From: an uncultured archaeon
GTDB lineage: Archaea > Asgardarchaeota > Lokiarchaeia > Sigyniarchaeales > SOKP01
Reading direction: 5' to 3'
DNA: 17,552 bases
Assembly (NCBI GenBank): GCA_964525635.1
Contig: CAZGJX010000089.1
Location: forward strand, 1 to 17,552
The stretch's first letter is position 1. Each line of letters begins with the position of its first letter. Position numbers and translations under genes: made by a program. This document shows positions 7,460-17,552 of the stretch, piece after piece. Below the pieces are notes generated by a model. It did no database searches, was not told the origin of the DNA, and saw only the letters and a program-made list of their open reading frames with translations.

Positions 7460-8515
7460 ATGGGAGTAAAAATAAACGATCTAGTAAAAGAAGTAAAACG
7501 CACAATTACATTTGAAAATCTCTTAAATAAAAAGATTGCCATCGATGCATTTAATACAATTTATCAATTTTTAGCTATAATTAGACAGAGAAATGGAACA
7601 CCTTTAAAAGATTATGAAGGAAATATAACATCTCATCTATCTGGATTATTCTATAGAACAATTAATTTTATAGAACATAATATTAAACCCATCTATGTAT
7701 TTGATGGAAAACCTTCTGAATTAAAACTTGAAACAATTGAAGAGAGAAGAAAAGTAAAAAAAGAAGCTAATATAAAAATGATTAAAGCTCAAGAAAAGGG
7801 AGATATGTCAGAAGCTAAAAAGTTTGCTCAAATGACATCAAAATTAGATAATAATATGATTGAAGAATGTAAAAAATTAATAAATTATATGGGTATACCA
7901 ATTATTCAAGCTCCTTCCGAAGGGGAAGCACAATCTGCATATATGGTAGATGTTGGTGATGCATGGGCCTGTGCTTCTCAAGACTATGATACTCTTCTAT
8001 TTGGAGGAAATAGATTAATTAGAAATTTTGCTATCAGTAGAAGTAAAAAAGTTAAAAATACAACTATAACATTAGATATAGAATATATATCCCTTTCAAA
8101 GTTTTTAGATAAATTTGATATTACGAGAGAACAACTAATCGAAATGGGTATTTTAATCGGAACTGATTTTTTTCCCGGAGTAAAAGGTATTGGACAACAT
8201 AAAGCTTTAGAATTAATTAAGAAATATGAAACATTAGAAACTATTATCAAAAGTAATGTTTTACCCCCTAAAAATAATCTAGTTTCAAATTTAGACTTAA
8301 TAGAACAAGCAAAAACAATATTTTCTACTCCTACTATTAAAAAGGATTATCCTACTTTAAAATGGGAAAAAATTGAATATGACAAAATAGAGGAATTATT
8401 GGTTGAACAACATAATTTTTCTAAAAATAGAGTAATAAATGCCTTAGATCGGCTTAAGAAATTAGATAGTACTTCAAAACAGGTATCTCTGGACTCATTT
8501 TTTGGGAGTAGATAA
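7460..8515 (+). CDS. fen: Flap endonuclease 1
   Basis: MGV start, AIDAFNTIYQFL, TSHLSGLFYRT, VFDG, APSEGEAQ, SQDYDTLLFG, GTDFFPGVKGIG (H3TH), C-terminal PIP box. Confidence 0.98.
   Translation: MGVKINDLVKEVKRTITFENLLNKKIAIDAFNTIYQFLAIIRQRNGTPLKDYEGNITSHLSGLFYRTINFIEHNIKPIYVFDGKPSELKLETIEERRKVKKEANIKMIKAQEKGDMSEAKKFAQMTSKLDNNMIEECKKLINYMGIPIIQAPSEGEAQSAYMVDVGDAWACASQDYDTLLFGGNRLIRNFAISRSKKVKNTTITLDIEYISLSKFLDKFDITREQLIEMGILIGTDFFPGVKGIGQHKALELIKKYETLETIIKSNVLPPKNNLVSNLDLIEQAKTIFSTPTIKKDYPTLKWEKIEYDKIEELLVEQHNFSKNRVINALDRLKKLDSTSKQVSLDSFFGSR
8480..8503 (+). other. PCNA-interacting (PIP) box of FEN-1, QVSLDSFF
   Basis: Matches Q-x-x-L-x-x-F-F exactly at the C-terminus. Confidence 0.9.
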
Positions 8516-8806
8516 AATTATTTCTCTATAAATCGTAAATTTATGATATAATTTTCTTCTTTCTTAAAAAAAAGGAATTAAAAATTACTATTCAATAATT
8601 AATAGGTATCCGTATTATTTTAAAAACAAAACCTCTATAAATAGTAATGTTATATATATTTTATAAGAAAAGTAATCATCACTGGAATTAAAGTATTTAT
8701 TATTATTATATCTATGAATAAATTTGTAAGATTTTATAATTATTTTTGTGATATTTTCTTTTTATTCGTATAAATTAAAAAAAACTCGAAAATTTAAGAT
8801 TAAAAA

Positions 8807-11002
8807 ATGTTTTTTAGTGAGAACAAAGAACTAGAAGCCTTCATTTCTTATGGTAAATATCAACAAGCATTAAAATTATTAAACTCCATTGAGAAAGAAA
8901 GAACTCTTATGGATGATGAAGATTTAATAAAATTATACATACAAAGTATTATTCATCTTGATAAAGGGATGTTTCAAAAAGGAAAGACACTTGCTAGTGA
9001 ATTAATAAAAAAAGCTAAAGAAAAAAACAATATTTTAAGAGAGCTTGATGGTATTAATGCAAAAATAGAACATCTTGTTTGTTTAACATTATTTAATGAA
9101 GCTTTTGATTTAATAAGCCAGGGGGAATTAATATTAAGCAATATTCAAGGTAATTTCAATGAAGAATATAACTATAGAAAAGCATATCTTTTATTTCTAA
9201 AAGGAAGAACTTATATGAATGCCTATAAAGATTTAGAAGCTATTGAATTATTTAAAAAAAGTTATGAAATTAGAAGCAATATAGATGATAAATTTGGCGT
9301 TTTATATACTTTAATAAATCAGGGTTTTGTGACTACGAGTATCGGTGATTTTAGTGAAGCTGAAAAATTTATTAATGAGGCTCTGACTATAGCAGAAGAA
9401 TTAGATATAAAAAATGGAATTGTATGGGCTCTATTACAGTTGGGATGGATTAAGTATCATTTGAGAGATCTGGATACTGCTATGAAATCTGCTGATAGAT
9501 GTATGCAAATTTGTAAGAAAGAAAGCTATATATATGCTTCTTCCATATGTTATGATCTTACTGGACATTGTTATTTTATCAAAGGAAATCTAAATAAAGC
9601 TTTATCTTATTTTCAAAAAAGTCTACATATTAGAGTATCATCAGGACATAAGGGATTAGTAACGCAATCATATTATAGTATTGGAAATGTGTTTAGTCGG
9701 AAAGGAGAACTTAAAAAAAGTCTGGAATATTACGAAAAAGGATTAAATGTATCTGTTGTTGAAGATAGAGTGGTATTAAAACCAGTATATTTAAGTATAA
9801 TTGGTAAAATATATGGAGAGCTTGGAGATTTTTCTACCGCTAAAAAAAATTTATTGGAAGCTTTAGATTTATTAATAGAAAGAGGAATCTTCATCTATCA
9901 TTTTCAGAATTTTAGTATTTCTATAGCTAAAACATATCATTATCTTATTGTTCTCTCACTAAATAATAATGATTTAGATAAAATAGATGAATATTTAAAT
10001 CAATTATATGAGTTAAGTATCAAATATAAAGATAATAAACAAATTAAACAATTATACGAGTTAGATAAAGCAATTATTTTAAACTCAAAAGATCGTTTAA
10101 TGGAAAAAATGAAAGCTGGGATAATTTTCAAGAAAATCAGCAAAGAGGAAATCTTAGACCATGAAATCTCTGTTGAAGCTATGATACATCTATGTGATAC
10201 TTTAATATATGAATTAGAGTTATCGGGAGATAGGAAAATTCTCAAAGAGATAGAAGAACTATCTGATAAACTGCTTAATATCGCACAATCTCAATATTTG
10301 TATGATTTATTAGCAGAAACATATTTTCTCAAAGCAAAAATATCAATACTCAATTTAGATATCAAAAATTCACGTATGTTATTAACTAAAGCTCAAACAA
10401 TTGCGAATGAACATGGATTGAAAAGATTGGCAAATAAAATCTCCTATGAACATGATTCTTTTTTGATTAATTTAGAGGAATGGGAAGAAAAGACTAATCA
10501 AAATGTTTCATTACAAGAAAGAATAAATAGTTCAAAACATGAATTCTTATTTTCAAAAATGATTAGAACTAAAATTGAAGAATTACCTAAAGATATAGAA
10601 ATACCTGTATATATAGTAATTCTCAGTACTATTGATGGGCATTGTTTATATAGCAACGCTTTTGAGGAGATTAGTCTAAAAGATGGAGATTTAATAGCCG
10701 GATTTATTTCTGCTATTAATATGTTTGGTAAAGAAGCTTTTGCTACTTCTGGTTCTATAGATAGAATTAAACATGGTGAATTTTTAATAATCTTTCAATC
10801 TAAAGAGAATTTTCTATTTGGATATGTTTTTAAAGGACATTCTTATTCTGCATTCTCTAAATTGAAAGATTTTGTTCAAAAATTATATAAAGAAGAATAT
10901 ATCATTAGAGAATTGACTTTATCTGCTAATAGTTATACTGAAATATCAGATGGGATTACCTCCTCCATTAATCAGCTAAGCACAGAGATTTTCTTTGAAT
11001 AA
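8807..11002 (+). CDS. TPR-repeat protein with C-terminal longin-like domain (paralog 1)
   Basis: Repeated TPR-like units (G..Y...G....A..Y..K.L.I, e.g. TGHCYFIKGNLNKALSYFQKSL and IGNVFSRKGELKKSLEYYEKGL). The last ~130 aa have a beta-beta-alpha-beta-beta-beta-alpha pattern (VYIVILSTIDGHCLYS / DLIAGFISAINMFGKE / IDRIKHGEFLIIF / FLFGYVF / helix), as in longin/sedlin folds. Confidence 0.8.
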   Translation: MFFSENKELEAFISYGKYQQALKLLNSIEKERTLMDDEDLIKLYIQSIIHLDKGMFQKGKTLASELIKKAKEKNNILRELDGINAKIEHLVCLTLFNEAFDLISQGELILSNIQGNFNEEYNYRKAYLLFLKGRTYMNAYKDLEAIELFKKSYEIRSNIDDKFGVLYTLINQGFVTTSIGDFSEAEKFINEALTIAEELDIKNGIVWALLQLGWIKYHLRDLDTAMKSADRCMQICKKESYIYASSICYDLTGHCYFIKGNLNKALSYFQKSLHIRVSSGHKGLVTQSYYSIGNVFSRKGELKKSLEYYEKGLNVSVVEDRVVLKPVYLSIIGKIYGELGDFSTAKKNLLEALDLLIERGIFIYHFQNFSISIAKTYHYLIVLSLNNNDLDKIDEYLNQLYELSIKYKDNKQIKQLYELDKAIILNSKDRLMEKMKAGIIFKKISKEEILDHEISVEAMIHLCDTLIYELELSGDRKILKEIEELSDKLLNIAQSQYLYDLLAETYFLKAKISILNLDIKNSRMLLTKAQTIANEHGLKRLANKISYEHDSFLINLEEWEEKTNQNVSLQERINSSKHEFLFSKMIRTKIEELPKDIEIPVYIVILSTIDGHCLYSNAFEEISLKDGDLIAGFISAINMFGKEAFATSGSIDRIKHGEFLIIFQSKENFLFGYVFKGHSYSAFSKLKDFVQKLYKEEYIIRELTLSANSYTEISDGITSSINQLSTEIFFE

Positions 11003-11147
11003 GAGTACTTTATACCTTATCTCTTAGATTAAATATTAGTCTTATATGAAAATTAAAAGAAAATTTACTAATATATCCAAAGATCAAGATTTATAGATAA
11101 TTTATTTTATTATCATATAAAATAACACTGATTTATTTAATTGAAAA

Positions 11148-13343
11148 ATGTTTTTTAGTGAGAACACACAACTGGAAGCTTTCATTTCTTTTGGTAAATA
11201 TCAACAAGCATTAGAAGTGTTAAATTCAATTGAGAAAAAGAAATCATTATCTGTTAATGAAAAATTAATCAGAAAATATATTCAGAGTTTTATATATCTA
11301 GATAAAGGTGAATTTAATAAAGGTAAAGCCATTGCAGAAGAAATGATTGAGGAATCCAAATTAAAAAACATACCATTACGAGAAATTGATGGAGTAATAG
11401 CAAAAATAGAAAATTGTATTTGTCTGACATTATTTGATGAATGTTTTGAATTAATCAAAGAATGGGAATCATTATTAAGCAACCTAAAAGACGTTTCTGA
11501 AGAAGAATATAAATATCGTGAAGCTTATTTCTTTTATTTAAAAGGAAGAACTTTTCAAGACACACATATTGTACATGAGGGATTAGTTTCATTAGAACGA
11601 TGTTATCAGATAAGAAAAGAAATTAATGATAAATTTGGAATATTATGGGTTATAATAAATACAGGTCATTTAGAAACATCTATAGGTAATTTTCAAGCAA
11701 GTGAAGATAAGTTAAATGAAGGACTAATTATTGCAGAAGAATTAGATGTTTCAATAGGAATTACATGGATATTGATAATATTAGGGTGGATAAAATATCA
11801 TACAAGAGAGTTAAATGCTGCAATGAAATATGCAAATAGATGTTTACCCATTTGCATAAAAAACAATTTTAGTTATGCTCTTACAATTTGTTATGATCTT
11901 TTTGGCCATTGTGATCTTCTACAAGGTAAACTTGACGAAGCTTTAACTTATTTTGAAAAAAGTTTGAATATTAGAGTATCAATGGGACATAAGGGATTAA
12001 TAACTCAATCATACTACAGTATTGGAAATGTATTTAGTCGCAAAGGAGAGCTTAAAAAAAGTTTAGAATATTACGAAAAGGGATTAAATATACCTGTTGT
12101 TGAAGATAGAGCAATGTTAAGACCTGCATATTTAAGTGTAATAGGAAAAATTTATGGAGAGCTTGGTGATTTTTATATCGCTAAAAAATATTTATTAGAA
12201 GCTTTAGATTTATTGAATAAGAGAAAAATCTTTATATATCACTTTCAGAATTTTAGTGTATCTATAGCTAAAACATATCATTATCTTATTGTTCTCTCAC
12301 TAACTAATAATGATCTTGATAAAATTGATGATTATATAAAACAATTATATGAGTTAAGTAATAAATATAAAGATACAAAACAAATTAAACAAATATATGA
12401 ATTAGATGAAGCAATTATTTTAAAATCAAAAGAACGTTTAAGAGAAAAAATGAAGGCTGGAATTATTTTCAAAAAAATTAGTGAAGAAGAAACTTCAGAT
12501 CATGAGATCTCTATTGAAGCTATGACACACCTGTGTGAAATTTTAATATATGAACTAGAATTATCAGGAGATATAAGCATTCTTGAAGAGATAGAAGAAC
12601 TATCTGATAAACTGCTAAATATTGCAAAATCACAATATTTATATGATTTATTGGCGGAAACTTATTTTCTCAAAGCGCAAATATCAAAACTTAATTTAGA
12701 TATAAAAAACTCACGTATATTTTTAAATAAGGCTCAAGATATCGCCAATAAGCATAATTTAAAATTATTAGCGAATAAGATTTCTAACGAACATGATTCA
12801 TTATTAACAAATTTAGATAATTGGGAGAATAATAATGAACAAAACAAACCAATTAAGGAAAGAATAAATCAATCCAAATATGAATTCTTATTCTCAAAAA
12901 TGATAAGAGTAAAGATTGAAAAATTTCCTAAACAAACAGAAAAACCCGTATTTCTTGTTATATTAAGTATTATTGATGGTCACTGTTTATATAATAAATC
13001 TTTTGAAGGATACAATCTTAAAAATGGAGATTTAATAGCTGGATTTATTTCAGCGATTAATATGTTTGGTAAAGAAACATTTGCCCCTTCAGGGTCCATA
13101 GACAGAATTAAACATGGCGAATTCTTAATAATCTTCCAAGTTAAAGAGAATTTTTTATTTGGATATGTTTTTATTGGACATTCTTATTCAGCTAGTACTA
13201 AATTCAATGATTTTATCCTAAAATTATATAAAGAAGAATATATCATTAGAGAATTAAAAATGTCTGCCAATAGTTATACTGAGATTTCAAATAAAACTGC
13301 TTTAATTATTGATCAACTAAGCAATAATATTTTCATTGAATAA
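11148..13343 (+). CDS. TPR-repeat protein with C-terminal longin-like domain (paralog 2, tandem duplicate)
   Basis: Same length (731 aa) as paralog 1 and colinear with it at a constant 2341-nt offset; same TPR and longin-like motifs. Confidence 0.8.
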   Translation: MFFSENTQLEAFISFGKYQQALEVLNSIEKKKSLSVNEKLIRKYIQSFIYLDKGEFNKGKAIAEEMIEESKLKNIPLREIDGVIAKIENCICLTLFDECFELIKEWESLLSNLKDVSEEEYKYREAYFFYLKGRTFQDTHIVHEGLVSLERCYQIRKEINDKFGILWVIINTGHLETSIGNFQASEDKLNEGLIIAEELDVSIGITWILIILGWIKYHTRELNAAMKYANRCLPICIKNNFSYALTICYDLFGHCDLLQGKLDEALTYFEKSLNIRVSMGHKGLITQSYYSIGNVFSRKGELKKSLEYYEKGLNIPVVEDRAMLRPAYLSVIGKIYGELGDFYIAKKYLLEALDLLNKRKIFIYHFQNFSVSIAKTYHYLIVLSLTNNDLDKIDDYIKQLYELSNKYKDTKQIKQIYELDEAIILKSKERLREKMKAGIIFKKISEEETSDHEISIEAMTHLCEILIYELELSGDISILEEIEELSDKLLNIAKSQYLYDLLAETYFLKAQISKLNLDIKNSRIFLNKAQDIANKHNLKLLANKISNEHDSLLTNLDNWENNNEQNKPIKERINQSKYEFLFSKMIRVKIEKFPKQTEKPVFLVILSIIDGHCLYNKSFEGYNLKNGDLIAGFISAINMFGKETFAPSGSIDRIKHGEFLIIFQVKENFLFGYVFIGHSYSASTKFNDFILKLYKEEYIIRELKMSANSYTEISNKTALIIDQLSNNIFIE

Positions 13344-13705
13344 GGATGCTTTTTAACTTTTATATCTAAATGAAAAAATTTCTCATTTATATAAAATTAT
13401 AAAGTAAATCAATTAATTTAACAAAAAATCGAGAGTTTATCTTTCTTTTAGTATTACTGTATATAAAAGTAATATTTATTTATCTTTCTTTAAGATATGT
13501 AGATATTCTTTTTTATATTTTTTCTCTTTTATGTTATTGGTGTATTTTTATTTAATAATCTTTATAAAATAAATTAAGAAAAATTTAATTGATCTGATTT
13601 ATTATATTAAATTAATAAAACCTATTAAAAAATTATAAGTAGTAAATTGTTCAATATTAGGTTTTAAGGACTAATTTATTCATATTAATATTCTAAAGTC
13701 CAAAA

Positions 13706-13732
13706 AATTTTGCAAAATTGTTGTTTTTATAA
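13706..13732 (+). promoter_or_regulatory. Candidate cdc48 promoter: palindrome AATTTTGCAAAATT plus TATA-like TTTTATAA
   Basis: Perfect 14-bp palindrome at 13706-13719, just upstream of TTTTATAA (13725-13732), which ends about 38 nt before the ATG. Confidence 0.3.
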
Positions 13733-13769
13733 TATCAAATAAAGAAATATTTCTAATAATCAAATACTC

Positions 13770-16007
13770 ATGACAACTTCTGATAGTAAAGATAATAAGA
13801 AAGAAGATGGAGAGCAGTTAAAAGTAATACTCCGAGTTCAAAAAGCTAAAAAAAGAGATATTGGGCGAAATATAATCAGAATAGACCCAAAAACTATGGA
13901 ACAATTGGATATTCAAACTGGTGATGTAATTGCTCTAAGAGGTAAAAAAGAAAGTGCAGGAATTGCATGGCCTAGTTATCCTCAAGATAATGGTCTGGGA
14001 ATTGTAAGAGTGGATTCTCGCCTTAGAAAAAATACAGGAACTAGTATTGATGATACTGTTGAAATACAAAAAGTTAATGCTGCTATTGCACAAAATGTTA
14101 TTTTGGCTCCAGCAAGTGTAAGAATAAGAAGTAATCCAAGATTTGAAACATTTGTAAAAAGAAAGCTCAGTAATTATCCAGTAACTTTAGATGACATCAT
14201 TCTTATTTCAATCGGAATAAGCAGGGAAATTACATTTAAGGTTACAAATCTTAGACCTAAAGGTGTATGTATTATTAAACAAGATACTACCCTAAGTATC
14301 AGTGAACATATAACTGAAGAAGAAGATAAAGGCGAAGGATATGTTACTTATGAGGATGTTGGTGGTTTAGACCGAGAAATACAAAGAGTAAGAGAAATGG
14401 TAGAATTACCATTAAGACATCCTTCTTTATTTAAACGCTTAGGAATAGACCCTCCAAAGGGAGTGCTTTTAAGAGGGCCACCTGGTTGTGGTAAAACTTT
14501 AGTTGCAAAAGCTGTAGCAAATGAAAGTGAAGCTAATTTCATTTCTATAAATGGACCTGAAGTTATGAGTAAATTTTATGGAGAATCTGAAAAAAAATTA
14601 AGAAAAATCTTTATAGATGCTGAAGAAAAAAGTCCTTCAATAATATTTATAGATGAAATTGATGCAATTGCTCCAAAGCGGGAGACAGTTACTGGAGAAG
14701 TAGAAAGAAGAGTTGTTGCTCAACTTCTAGCTTTAATGGATGGTTTACATAGCCGAGGGAGAGTTATTGTTATTGGGGCTACAAATAGACCAAATAGTCT
14801 AGATTCTGCATTAAGAAGACCTGGACGGTTTGATCGTGAAATAGAAATAAAGGTTCCTAATGAAAGAGGAAGAAGAGAAATTTTTCAAATACATACTAGG
14901 AATATGCCACTTGACAATAAAATGGTATTAATAAAAGATTTTGCTCAAATAACTCATGGTTTTGTTGGAGCGGATATTTCAGCAGTTTGTCGAGAAGCTG
15001 CAATGTCAGCTTTGCGTCGCTATTTGCCAAGAATTGATTTAGAATCTGAAATTATTGATCCTGAACTATTAGAACAAATAAAAGTAACTAGGGATGATTT
15101 TGAGCAAGCATTAAAAGAAGTACTTCCTTCAGGAATAAGAGAAGTATTTGTAGAAATACCAAATGTGAATTGGAATCAAGTTGGAGGATTAAATGAACTA
15201 AAACAGAAATTAATTGAAGCAGTCGATTGGCCTTTATCACACCCTAAAATCTTTAAACGAATGGGTATAAGACCTCCAAAGGGAGTTTTATTATATGGAC
15301 CACCTGGTTGTGGAAAGACTCTATTAGCAAGAGCAATAGCTACAGAAAGTAAAGCAAATTTTATTTCCATAAAGGGACCAGAGCTTTTATCAAAATGGGT
15401 TGGAGAAAGCGAGAAAGCAATAAGAGAAGTATTTCGAAAAGCGAAAATGGCCGCTCCCTGTATAATATTTTTTGATGAATTTGACTCAGTTGCACCAAGT
15501 AGGGGACGTTTTAATTCTGATTCTGGAGTGACGGAAAAAGTTTTATCTCAATTCTTAACAGAATTAGATGGCTTAGAAGTTATGAAAGATATTGTTGTAA
15601 TCGCAGCAACAAATCGACCTGATATACTCGACACAGCATTAATCCGACCTGGAAGGATAGATAGAATATTACTAGTTCCCCCTCCAAATGAGGTAGAAAG
15701 ATTAGAAATATTAAAATTATTCACTAAAGATATGCCATTAACCACAAATATAGAATTAAAAGAATTAGTTAACATGACCGAAGGATTTTCAGGAGCAGAT
15801 ATAGAAACTTGGTGCCGAGAAGCGGCTATGGGCGCTCTTAGAGAAAATATAAGAGCAAGAAAAGTATCTATCGAGCACTTTAATGATGCAAAAGAAGAAA
15901 TCCATCCTACAATTACTCCTGAAATTTTAAAATGGTATGAGGATTTTGGTAAAAAGTTAAGACGTAGAAAAATTCAAAAACAAAAAGAAGAAGAATTATT
16001 TGTGTAA
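13770..16007 (+). CDS. cdc48: Cdc48/VCP(p97)-family AAA+ ATPase
   Basis: N-domain ([12 protein letters not shown]), two AAA modules each with GPPGCGKT, Walker B (IFIDEID; FFDEFD) and SRH ([10 protein letters not shown]; LIRPGRIDR); pore loops KFYGESE and KWVGESE. Confidence 0.98.
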
Positions 16008-16096
16008 TTCCAAAAAATTAATTAATTTTAAAATATAATGTTATAATATTACTTCTTTCTTTAAATATTATTAAAATCTAATAAGTATAATAAGAG

Positions 16097-16372
16097 GTGA
16101 ATCATCTGGATAGATGGAATAAAAGACCAGTTATTAATTCGATTATAGATATTCTTGTTGACAATAAAGGAGAGGCTCTTGATAAAAGAATTGAAGAACT
16201 CTTGAGGAAGGAATATCCTTATATCAATTCATATAATTTAGAAGAAATCTTTATGAAAATGGAAAGTAACAATATCATTACGGTATTTCGAGTATCAAAA
16301 AGTAAGAATATGATAGTTCTTAATAAAGAAACAAGAGTTATAAAAAAAAAGAATATTAAAGATTTAGCTTAA
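16097..16372 (+). CDS. Small winged-helix-like protein downstream of cdc48 (start may be CTG 16106)
   Basis: Helix-helix-helix then beta-hairpin pattern (IIDILVDNKG / DKRIEELLRK / LEEIFMKMESNNIITV..SKNMIVL) typical of wHTH. GAGGTGA SD at 16094-16100. Confidence 0.6.
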   Translation: MNHLDRWNKRPVINSIIDILVDNKGEALDKRIEELLRKEYPYINSYNLEEIFMKMESNNIITVFRVSKSKNMIVLNKETRVIKKKNIKDLA

Positions 16373-16381
16373 TTCTTTATT

Positions 16382-17552
16382 TTACCAATTAAAACACGTC
16401 TGAGTTAAAGAGATATTTTCAAAATTTGATTTATATTTTCTCTCTCTGACATTAATAAATATTGGATAATTTACAGCGTTACCCATCAATAACATTTCTC
16501 CTACTCCCAAACTAGAAATCATATTTGCATGTTCTTTGGTGATAGCTTCTGAACTATCCATTAAATGCTTTAAATCATAAGGATTTTTTATATTTAAAAC
16601 CATTTTTGAATTCATTTGAGATAAGGCGGTCGTACTTAATTTTTTAGGCCTCTGGCTAATTAAACATAAGCATGCCATAAATTTACGTCCTTCTCTAGCA
16701 ATAGTTTCGATAATCTTTTTTGAAATCGCAGTAGATTGTGAGGCTTCAGGACATAATTGGTGTGCTTCTTCAACAATAAATAATATTGGGGGGATCTTTT
16801 CCATTCGTCGTAAATAAAAAAGACGATTGAATATATAATCTACAATAATTTGTTTTTTCCTAAGATTAATTTCACTTTGGAGGGAAAAGATAATTAACTT
16901 CCCTTTCTTAATTAAATTCTTTAAGATTGGATTTTCCAAAGGACCAAAAAGATTTAAACGTTCTAATTCTGAAAGCCATCCAATTAAAGCTTGTTTAGTA
17001 TTTTTACTTCCTTCTGGATCTGATTCTATAAGATCTATTATATCATGTAAGGAATATTTTCCTTTTTTTTCATCAATTTTATTTATATTTTGAATATATT
17101 TAGAAAGCTCTCTTACCTGAGCATAAGATATTTGTTGTTGATATTTTTTAAAAGCCCAAGCAGATATTTTTGAAGTGGCAATCTGAAAATAACTTATATT
17201 TTGTAATTCTATTTTGTCTTTTAATTCTCTTATATTTTTTAAGTATGAATATTCTCCATGTATATCTATTAAGATGATACAAGGGGTTCCTTCCTTTCTT
17301 GATAATAGCTCTTCAATAAGAACAGACGTAAGATAACTTTTTCCTCCTCCTGAAATTGATAGAATTGCAAAATGCTTATTTAGTAGGCGATCAACATCTA
17401 TTTTAGCTTTTAAATGAGAACCCTTAATATTTCCTAAATCTAATCCCTCTAAGATATTAAAACCTACGAATTCATTTATTATATCATCATTAACAAGATA
17501 GACTTCTGCCCCAGGGCTTGCAGGGTAAGTCATTCTATGAAGACTATGAATT
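16382..17552 (-). CDS. herA: HerA-family (FtsK/HerA, DUF87) ATPase/helicase, 5'-partial (runs off the window end)
   Basis: HFAILSISGGGKS (Walker A), IDIHGEY, IVEEAHQLCP (Walker B), IAREGRKF (Arg finger), ISQRP, LSQMNS. No in-frame stop between 17533 and the window end; YPASPGAEVYL resembles the end of a HAS-barrel. Confidence 0.87.
   Translation of the reverse strand, partial: IHSLHRMTYPASPGAEVYLVNDDIINEFVGFNILEGLDLGNIKGSHLKAKIDVDRLLNKHFAILSISGGGKSYLTSVLIEELLSRKEGTPCIILIDIHGEYSYLKNIRELKDKIELQNISYFQIATSKISAWAFKKYQQQISYAQVRELSKYIQNINKIDEKKGKYSLHDIIDLIESDPEGSKNTKQALIGWLSELERLNLFGPLENPILKNLIKKGKLIIFSLQSEINLRKKQIIVDYIFNRLFYLRRMEKIPPILFIVEEAHQLCPEASQSTAISKKIIETIAREGRKFMACLCLISQRPKKLSTTALSQMNSKMVLNIKNPYDLKHLMDSSEAITKEHANMISSLGVGEMLLMGNAVNYPIFINVRERKYKSNFENISLTQTCFNW

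Follow-up and report, generated by a model that had tools for sequence, protein, structure and literature searches.

Two adjacent TPR genes next to cdc48, here called A and B, belong to a family of soluble TPR-longin proteins in Asgard archaea that has no name yet and turns over its genes fast, and their place beside cdc48 is no more than chance. The family is a real longin fusion that is publicly unannotated, and gene order in relatives points to a small GTPase as its likely partner. The right experimental target is the set of GTPase-linked loci of these relatives, not the locus described here.

Gene order and assembly support

The window, i.e. the whole 17,552-nt stretch of DNA that we analysed, is the entire contig C89 of a 4.45-Mb genome, and its DNA was found in 2019 salt-marsh metagenomes. 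On the plus strand it carries eIF5A and NAD kinase (both names read from the sequence), PIN/Nob1, fen1, A, B, cdc48 and a 91-aa ORF, with HerA convergent. The original prediction had described two co-oriented large TPR genes, cdc48 after a 426-nt gap and a small wHTH gene; the two 731-aa ORFs, cdc48 on the same strand after 426 nt and the 91-aa ORF are all present as claimed. The features of the locus are as follows.

7460..8515, + strand: fen1, XPG_N/XPG_I flap endonuclease, the ancestral upstream neighbour of cdc48 (Pfam, synteny)
8516..8806: spacer brought in with the insertion; the insertion point is directly behind the fen1 stop codon
8807..11002, + strand: TPR-longin paralogue A, 731 aa (Pfam, AlphaFold model, fold matches); TPR/alpha-solenoid at residues ~7-575 (8807-10531), longin at residues ~594-731 (10586-10999)
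11003..11147: spacer between A and B, belonging to the 2341-bp tandem unit; its sequence is 71% similar to the first ~140 nt that follow B
11148..13343, + strand: TPR-longin paralogue B, 731 aa, tree sister of A (69.5% identity)
13543..13769: ancestral fen1-cdc48 spacer, kept ahead of cdc48 (70% over 273 nt to a congener)
13770..16007, + strand: Cdc48/VAT/p97 ATPase with N-domain and two AAA rings (Pfam, solved relatives)
16097..16372, + strand: 91-aa ORF, small winged-helix-like protein, the downstream neighbour of cdc48
16382..17533, - strand: HerA/DUF87 ATPase, convergent, close to the contig end (Pfam, synteny)

Contigs assembled from other salt-marsh runs span the junctions A-B, B-spacer and spacer-cdc48 piece by piece, which rules out an assembly artefact as the source of the gene order. 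An assembly chimera was rejected on the basis of these bridged junctions, which come from runs that may belong to one campaign; no fen1-to-cdc48 joint was listed. A scan for sigma-70 promoters and terminators stayed at chance level, with a model that is unsuited to archaea.

A longin domain behind a TPR solenoid

The AlphaFold model of A (pLDDT 86.6) has a helical solenoid at residues 7-575, followed by an alpha/beta domain with the topology beta-beta-alpha-beta-beta-beta-alpha-alpha(-alpha) at 599-730. When residues 594-731 were folded separately from 76 homologues (model pLDDT 83.5), DSSP assigned the longin topology. By VIA, this C-domain matched the Vamp7 longin (Z 13.3, rmsd 2.8 Å, 118 aligned residues) and synbindin (also Z 13.3), followed by AP-3 sigma (Z 12.7) and Sec22b (Z 12.4), and its best longin matches had an rmsd of 2.6-2.8 Å over 118-120 residues. 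The top 24 rows of the fold search were longins throughout, with roadblock proteins ranking lower, while the best Foldseek matches were the TRAPP core, Vamp7 and Sec22b. At the sequence level, Pfam Fuz_longin_1 (PF19036) was matched by nine of the 76 family members (best E 9e-6); A itself had no Pfam longin match, TPRs being all that Pfam detects in A and B, and a profile of the longin alignment found no significant match among PDB sequences. Judged by its predicted structure, the C-terminal domain of A and B belongs to the longin fold family, and the longin-like domain of the original prediction is borne out by topology, VIA scores and Foldseek matches alike. Its helix alpha1 (627-645) contains a Gly and, of the segments compared across the 17 paralogues of this genome, varied least (entropy 0.74, against 1.33 over the whole domain).

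The solenoid gave Pfam matches to TPR_12 (E 9e-30 and 6e-19) and TPR_MalT. Its closest folds were APPBP2 (Z 31.6), LGN (28.9), Rap (26.1) and NprR (25.4), and the series of the APPBP2/LGN/RRNPP/MalT group extended to 22.6, with about 315-355 residues aligned. The TPR repeats are 40 residues long, and their groove has invariant or near-invariant residues. Entropy was 1.19 at groove positions, 1.0 at structural positions and 1.75 on the outer surface. Repeats of 40 residues and a conserved groove are shared with the peptide-binding TPR superhelices, namely the CRL2 degron receptor APPBP2, LGN/Pins, the RRNPP receptors (Rap, NprR, AimR) and MalT domain III, although TPR resemblance of this kind is often convergent and, for Rap, NprR and AimR (Z 21-26), is a likeness of fold alone. 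Unlike A and B, none of these proteins has a C-terminal longin. RRNPP receptors instead have an N-terminal HTH or 3-helix effector and an adjacent signalling-peptide gene; no Pfam HTH was matched in A or B, where the extra domain is the longin.

Distribution of the family

This genome contains 17 full-length paralogues on five contigs, 48-69% identical to A. C3 carries a tandem run of eight and a further pair, C77 another pair, and the window the pair A and B; three are singles. Full-length homologues of A and B were Lokiarchaeota/Promethearchaeota proteins, with 0-30 family matches per Lokiarchaeia genome. Records that bear the labels Heimdall-, Hod-, Hermod- or Thorarchaeota also contain members. 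Most of the family lies in tandem arrays. Many of the genomes searched gave no family member, whereas Cdc48 is single-copy and near-universal. Conservation within the family is concentrated in the C-terminal half. Loci labelled Hermod- or Hodarchaeota (L109 compared with L110; L082, L117) are near-identical to, or nested among, Promethearchaeota loci; mis-binning or transfer is possible, so claims about the phylum range call for care.

In databases, family members are named 'tetratricopeptide repeat protein', and a literature search, with subscription journals largely outside its coverage, found no description of a TPR-longin fusion. Asgard longin/roadblock fusions are patchy and lineage-specific according to the passages found in 10.1101/2020.10.19.343400. 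The longin/roadblock eukaryotic signature proteins covered there and in PMC10933270 resemble the present family in being patchy multi-paralogue longin fusions with non-eukaryotic architectures; the passages found in these two sources do not describe a TPR-longin fusion.

Several individual loci deviate from the single-unit gene. In L082 (2-4039), an ORF of 1346 aa holds two complete TPR-longin units per chain, which would fit a dimeric function or a lost stop codon. On C3 (19795-54141), the eight-paralogue array is followed by a trp operon and a 923-aa ORF and then by two more paralogues, while a putative DENN/longin-like ORF of 307 aa lies upstream of the array (17402-18325).

Insertion and tandem duplication behind fen1

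A and B are sisters in the tree (SH-aLRT 99), and their nearest relatives are the single genes of three congeners. In these congeners the single orthologue lies at another locus, flanked by genes whose orthologues in this genome sit on C10 and C128. The tandem repeat unit measures 2341 bp. The gap between B and cdc48 has two parts: the first repeats the A-B spacer, with 71% identity over 157 nt, and the second is similar, over the 273 nt listed above, to a congener's whole fen1-cdc48 spacer plus the start of cdc48. From this make-up we infer that one gene was inserted behind fen1 and duplicated in situ, leaving the upstream region of cdc48 intact; 13543..13769 is presumably cdc48's own promoter region. 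The spacer at 8516..8806 has a weak likeness to the region upstream of the congener's orthologue (73% over 60 nt), and neither terminal inverted repeats nor a transposase were found as marks of the insertion. Synteny and trees support a lineage-specific insertion of a copy that left the ancestral locus, followed by tandem duplication.

Between A and B, dN/dS is 0.23 and stays below 0.3 in every segment, which indicates purifying selection on both copies and argues that both are functional genes. The N-terminal repeats have diverged with a dN of 0.26-0.40, compared with 0.09-0.16 in the C-terminal helical part.

The conserved neighbourhood of cdc48

We scored 126 of 136 Lokiarchaeia genomes in which fen1 and cdc48 lie on one contig and strand, leaving out ten with the genes on different contigs or strands. 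The fen1-cdc48 gap measured 80-298 nt in 124 of them, including all three congeners, and this genome was alone among the 126 in having a TPR-longin gene adjacent to cdc48. Family members were absent from both large fen1-cdc48 gaps (G005, G014) and from behind fen1 in G017; the G014 exception is apparently a frameshifted cdc48. A comparison of neighbourhoods in 29 relatives gave the same picture: none has a TPR-longin gene upstream of cdc48, and the constant neighbours are fen1, a small winged-helix ORF and HerA (27 of 29 each), with fen1 abutting cdc48 in all three congeners. Neither cdc48 nor fen1 was found in the flanks of the other family loci (L031-L138).

The original prediction had proposed the pair as part of a candidate Cdc48 adaptor/ATPase module and had named absence of the TPR genes from this locus in relatives, with random scatter elsewhere, as grounds for giving it up. 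The synteny survey refutes the module on exactly these grounds, as the pair is missing from this locus in the relatives and the 17 paralogues are scattered. The caveat that the pair may be an unrelated insertion was correct. Since A and B are two of 17 copies and recent arrivals beside cdc48, the module reading is unsupported; we hold their adjacency to be incidental with high confidence, and the locus provides no evidence of an Asgard Cdc48/NSF-like trafficking module.

This bears on the idea that A and B are adaptors that bring substrates to the adjacent Cdc48, on the model of alpha-SNAP and NSF, which we consider highly improbable. The locus resembles alpha-SNAP/NSF and the p97 cofactors (UBX, VIM, VBM, SHP, PUB) in that a gene for a helical solenoid adjoins one for a type II AAA ATPase. 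TPR proteins can act as ATPase adaptors, and the genes lie close together on one strand, but this linkage was found in one genome of the 126, cdc48 retains its ancestral upstream region, and a single-copy, near-universal ATPase contrasts with a family of 0-30 copies that is often not found. The best solved relatives of the ATPase are VAT (E 2e-249) and p97/Cdc48, and its Walker A/B motifs are intact in both rings; by sequence it is of VAT/p97 type, not NSF/Sec18. The analogy with alpha-SNAP is likewise weak: Sec17/alpha-SNAP matched the solenoid at rank 47 (Z 15.2, rmsd 12.2 Å), and the SNAP-family Pfam (PF14938) had no match in A or B at E<=0.1, even though the automatic name of one ESM Atlas family cluster, which is not a test, mentions SNAP. 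A pattern scan of A and B for VIM, VBM, SHP and FPR motifs was empty, archaeal cofactors possibly differing in motif, and no UBX or other p97-cofactor Pfam domain was matched.

A better candidate for a conserved partner or regulator of Cdc48 than the TPR pair is the winged-helix-like ORF, which is found behind cdc48 in 27 of 29 relatives spanning two families, independent of the pair. The 91-aa ORF had no Pfam match and resembles ArsR-like winged-helix clusters (ESM features 0.93). The C-terminus of Cdc48 (15990-16007) ends in an HbYX-like ELFV, with LFV in this family and LYT, LYA or LYS in the sister family (loci L002-L030). Such a tail suggests docking to the 20S proteasome. In other species, unrelated insertions in the fen1-cdc48 spacer (L177/G005; L176/L006/G017) carry SDR-like and other ORFs and a transposase-like ORF, so the spacer tolerates insertions. 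In G014 (L175), both cdc48 and fen1 seem frameshifted, either through assembly error or through inserts.

A Rab-like small GTPase linked to relatives of the pair

For 82 informative family genes, i.e. those with a downstream neighbour that is neither another family member nor a contig edge, we asked what that neighbour was. In 16 cases it was a co-oriented Ras-family GTPase (by Pfam) of ~180 aa, 75-132 nt downstream, compared with a background of 17 per 3145 genes (0.5%) across this genome. The linked GTPases group in a single clade (97/97) within a wider family that has a core copy in nearly every genome of the family, and it is from this core family that the TPR-linked GTPases of other Lokiarchaeia arose. 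A reverse search found an adjacent TPR-longin gene in six of seven loci of the linked GTPase clade vs none of 23 other loci. On the TPR-longin side, all linked genes fall in a single subclade of 29 rows (support 90); the linkage thus probably goes back to one ancestral event kept across genera and not to 16 independent ones.

A and B fall in another clade, at genus level (support 100). No GTPase gene adjoins any of this genome's 17 paralogues, and just one has a GTPase within 10 kb. Neither this genome nor its congeners yielded a member of the linked GTPase clade; the sole GTPase of the wider family here is the single-copy core gene on contig C27. The suggestion that the fusions are small-GTPase-sensing scaffolds has gene-order support in another subclade and none in the window's own clade. 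A predicted complex of two C-terminal halves of the L100 TPR-longin with the adjacent GTPase scored 0.03 (mark 0.32), which is evidence neither for nor against. According to PMC10933270, gene order in MK-D1 makes it difficult to recognise which GTPase belongs to which regulator. The GTPase-linked subclade is one of few gene-order clues to the regulator that an Asgard small GTPase may have.

The core Rab-like GTPase gene itself lies in an operon-like run with genes for a thioredoxin-like protein and a V4R/DUF2507 protein of the TRAPPC3-like fold family (L169 1504-2926). The same run is kept in L151, L153-L157, L159-L163, L165-L168, L170 and L172-L174, often with a convergent second GTPase. Near it on C27 is a possible stand-alone longin (31670-32185; weak hhalign match, probability 27%).

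A candidate intron in the core GTPase gene

The core GTPase gene on C27 contains a 30-nt insert with a TAA stop (33768-33797; in L169 and L144). It splits the G3 motif between WDI and AGQ and is missing from the congeners and all other 29 loci compared. The insert forms a canonical bulge-helix-bulge, with a 4-bp central helix (GACA:UGUU), bulges UUU and AAG, and flanking stems on the exon and intron sides. Cutting is predicted at two sites, and both fall on the insert boundaries defined by homology. The minimum-energy fold is a shifted form of the same hairpin. A genome-wide scan for this motif, run without a shuffled control, returned the insert among 45 candidates, most of them probably chance occurrences in AT-rich DNA. 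The insert is a candidate mRNA intron spliced by the tRNA endonuclease (EndA).

Possible function of the TPR-longin proteins

We give about even chances to a scaffold that senses peptides and, through its longin, docks a small GTPase. An extended peptide or the tail of a protein would be bound in a groove made by the 40-residue repeats, and the conserved alpha1 would pair with a second longin, from the same protein or a neighbouring paralogue. The resulting dimer would be a platform on which a Rab-like small GTPase docks, with the TPR-longin acting as GEF, GAP or effector in the manner of eukaryotic longin dimers. The large number of paralogues would serve to adjust input or localisation. The best candidate partner in this genome would be the core GTPase on C27. 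Many longins, such as those of SNAREs and AP sigma/mu, have no part in GTPase regulation, and a shared fold proves no function.

By analogy, A and B may work like the longin platforms of TRAPP or Mon1-Ccz1. Longin-dimer Rab GEF platforms include the TRAPP core Bet5/Trs23 (TRAPPC1/C4) and the first longins of Mon1-Ccz1, Fuzzy-Inturned and HPS1-HPS4 (PF19036), and the longin of A compares with Z 13.3 to synbindin, 11.3 to CPLANE and 8.6 to Mon1-Ccz1. A conserved, Gly-containing alpha1 is common to both, and a sister subclade of the window's proteins is linked by gene order to a Rab-like GTPase. A and B differ in having a single C-terminal longin on a ~575-aa TPR solenoid, instead of being N-terminal or tri-longin subunits, and in belonging to a clade that lacks a linked GTPase. 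Longin/roadblock dimers are platforms for small GTPases, mainly as GEFs, in the passages found in PMC10933270.

The main competing explanation is a GTPase-independent scaffold or peptide receptor, in which the TPR groove does the recognising and the longin is no more than a cap for dimerisation, auto-inhibition or cargo binding, like the longins of Vamp7, Sec22 or AP sigma. It is possible, if clearly short of even odds. The best fold matches are SNARE and adaptor longins, an alpha-solenoid with a longin recalls the AP/COPI trunk with sigma, and most subclades, including the window's and the Heimdall members, have no GTPase neighbour; these points have to be set against the one GTPase paralogue clade that sits behind TPR-longin genes at nearly all of its loci and in several genera. 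The scaffold that docks a GTPase can be extended to a more speculative scheme, which we think unlikely. Each family member would then be a one-component receptor in which longin dimers connect the recognition of a peptide to the switching of a Rab-like GTPase, with tandem paralogues like A and B forming combinatorial heterodimers, a prokaryotic forerunner of Mon1-Ccz1/TRAPP-type GEFs, acting here on a core GTPase that needs mRNA splicing at its bulge-helix-bulge intron.

Less probable still is a fast-evolving surveillance or defence receptor array, whose paralogues would diversify against foreign (viral) proteins and signal via the longin. Tandem arrays, relocation and variable copy number would fit such a role, as would the faster divergence of the N-terminal repeats, but the low dN/dS in every segment and a groove about as conserved as the structural positions argue against it, and the neighbours seen are mostly housekeeping genes.
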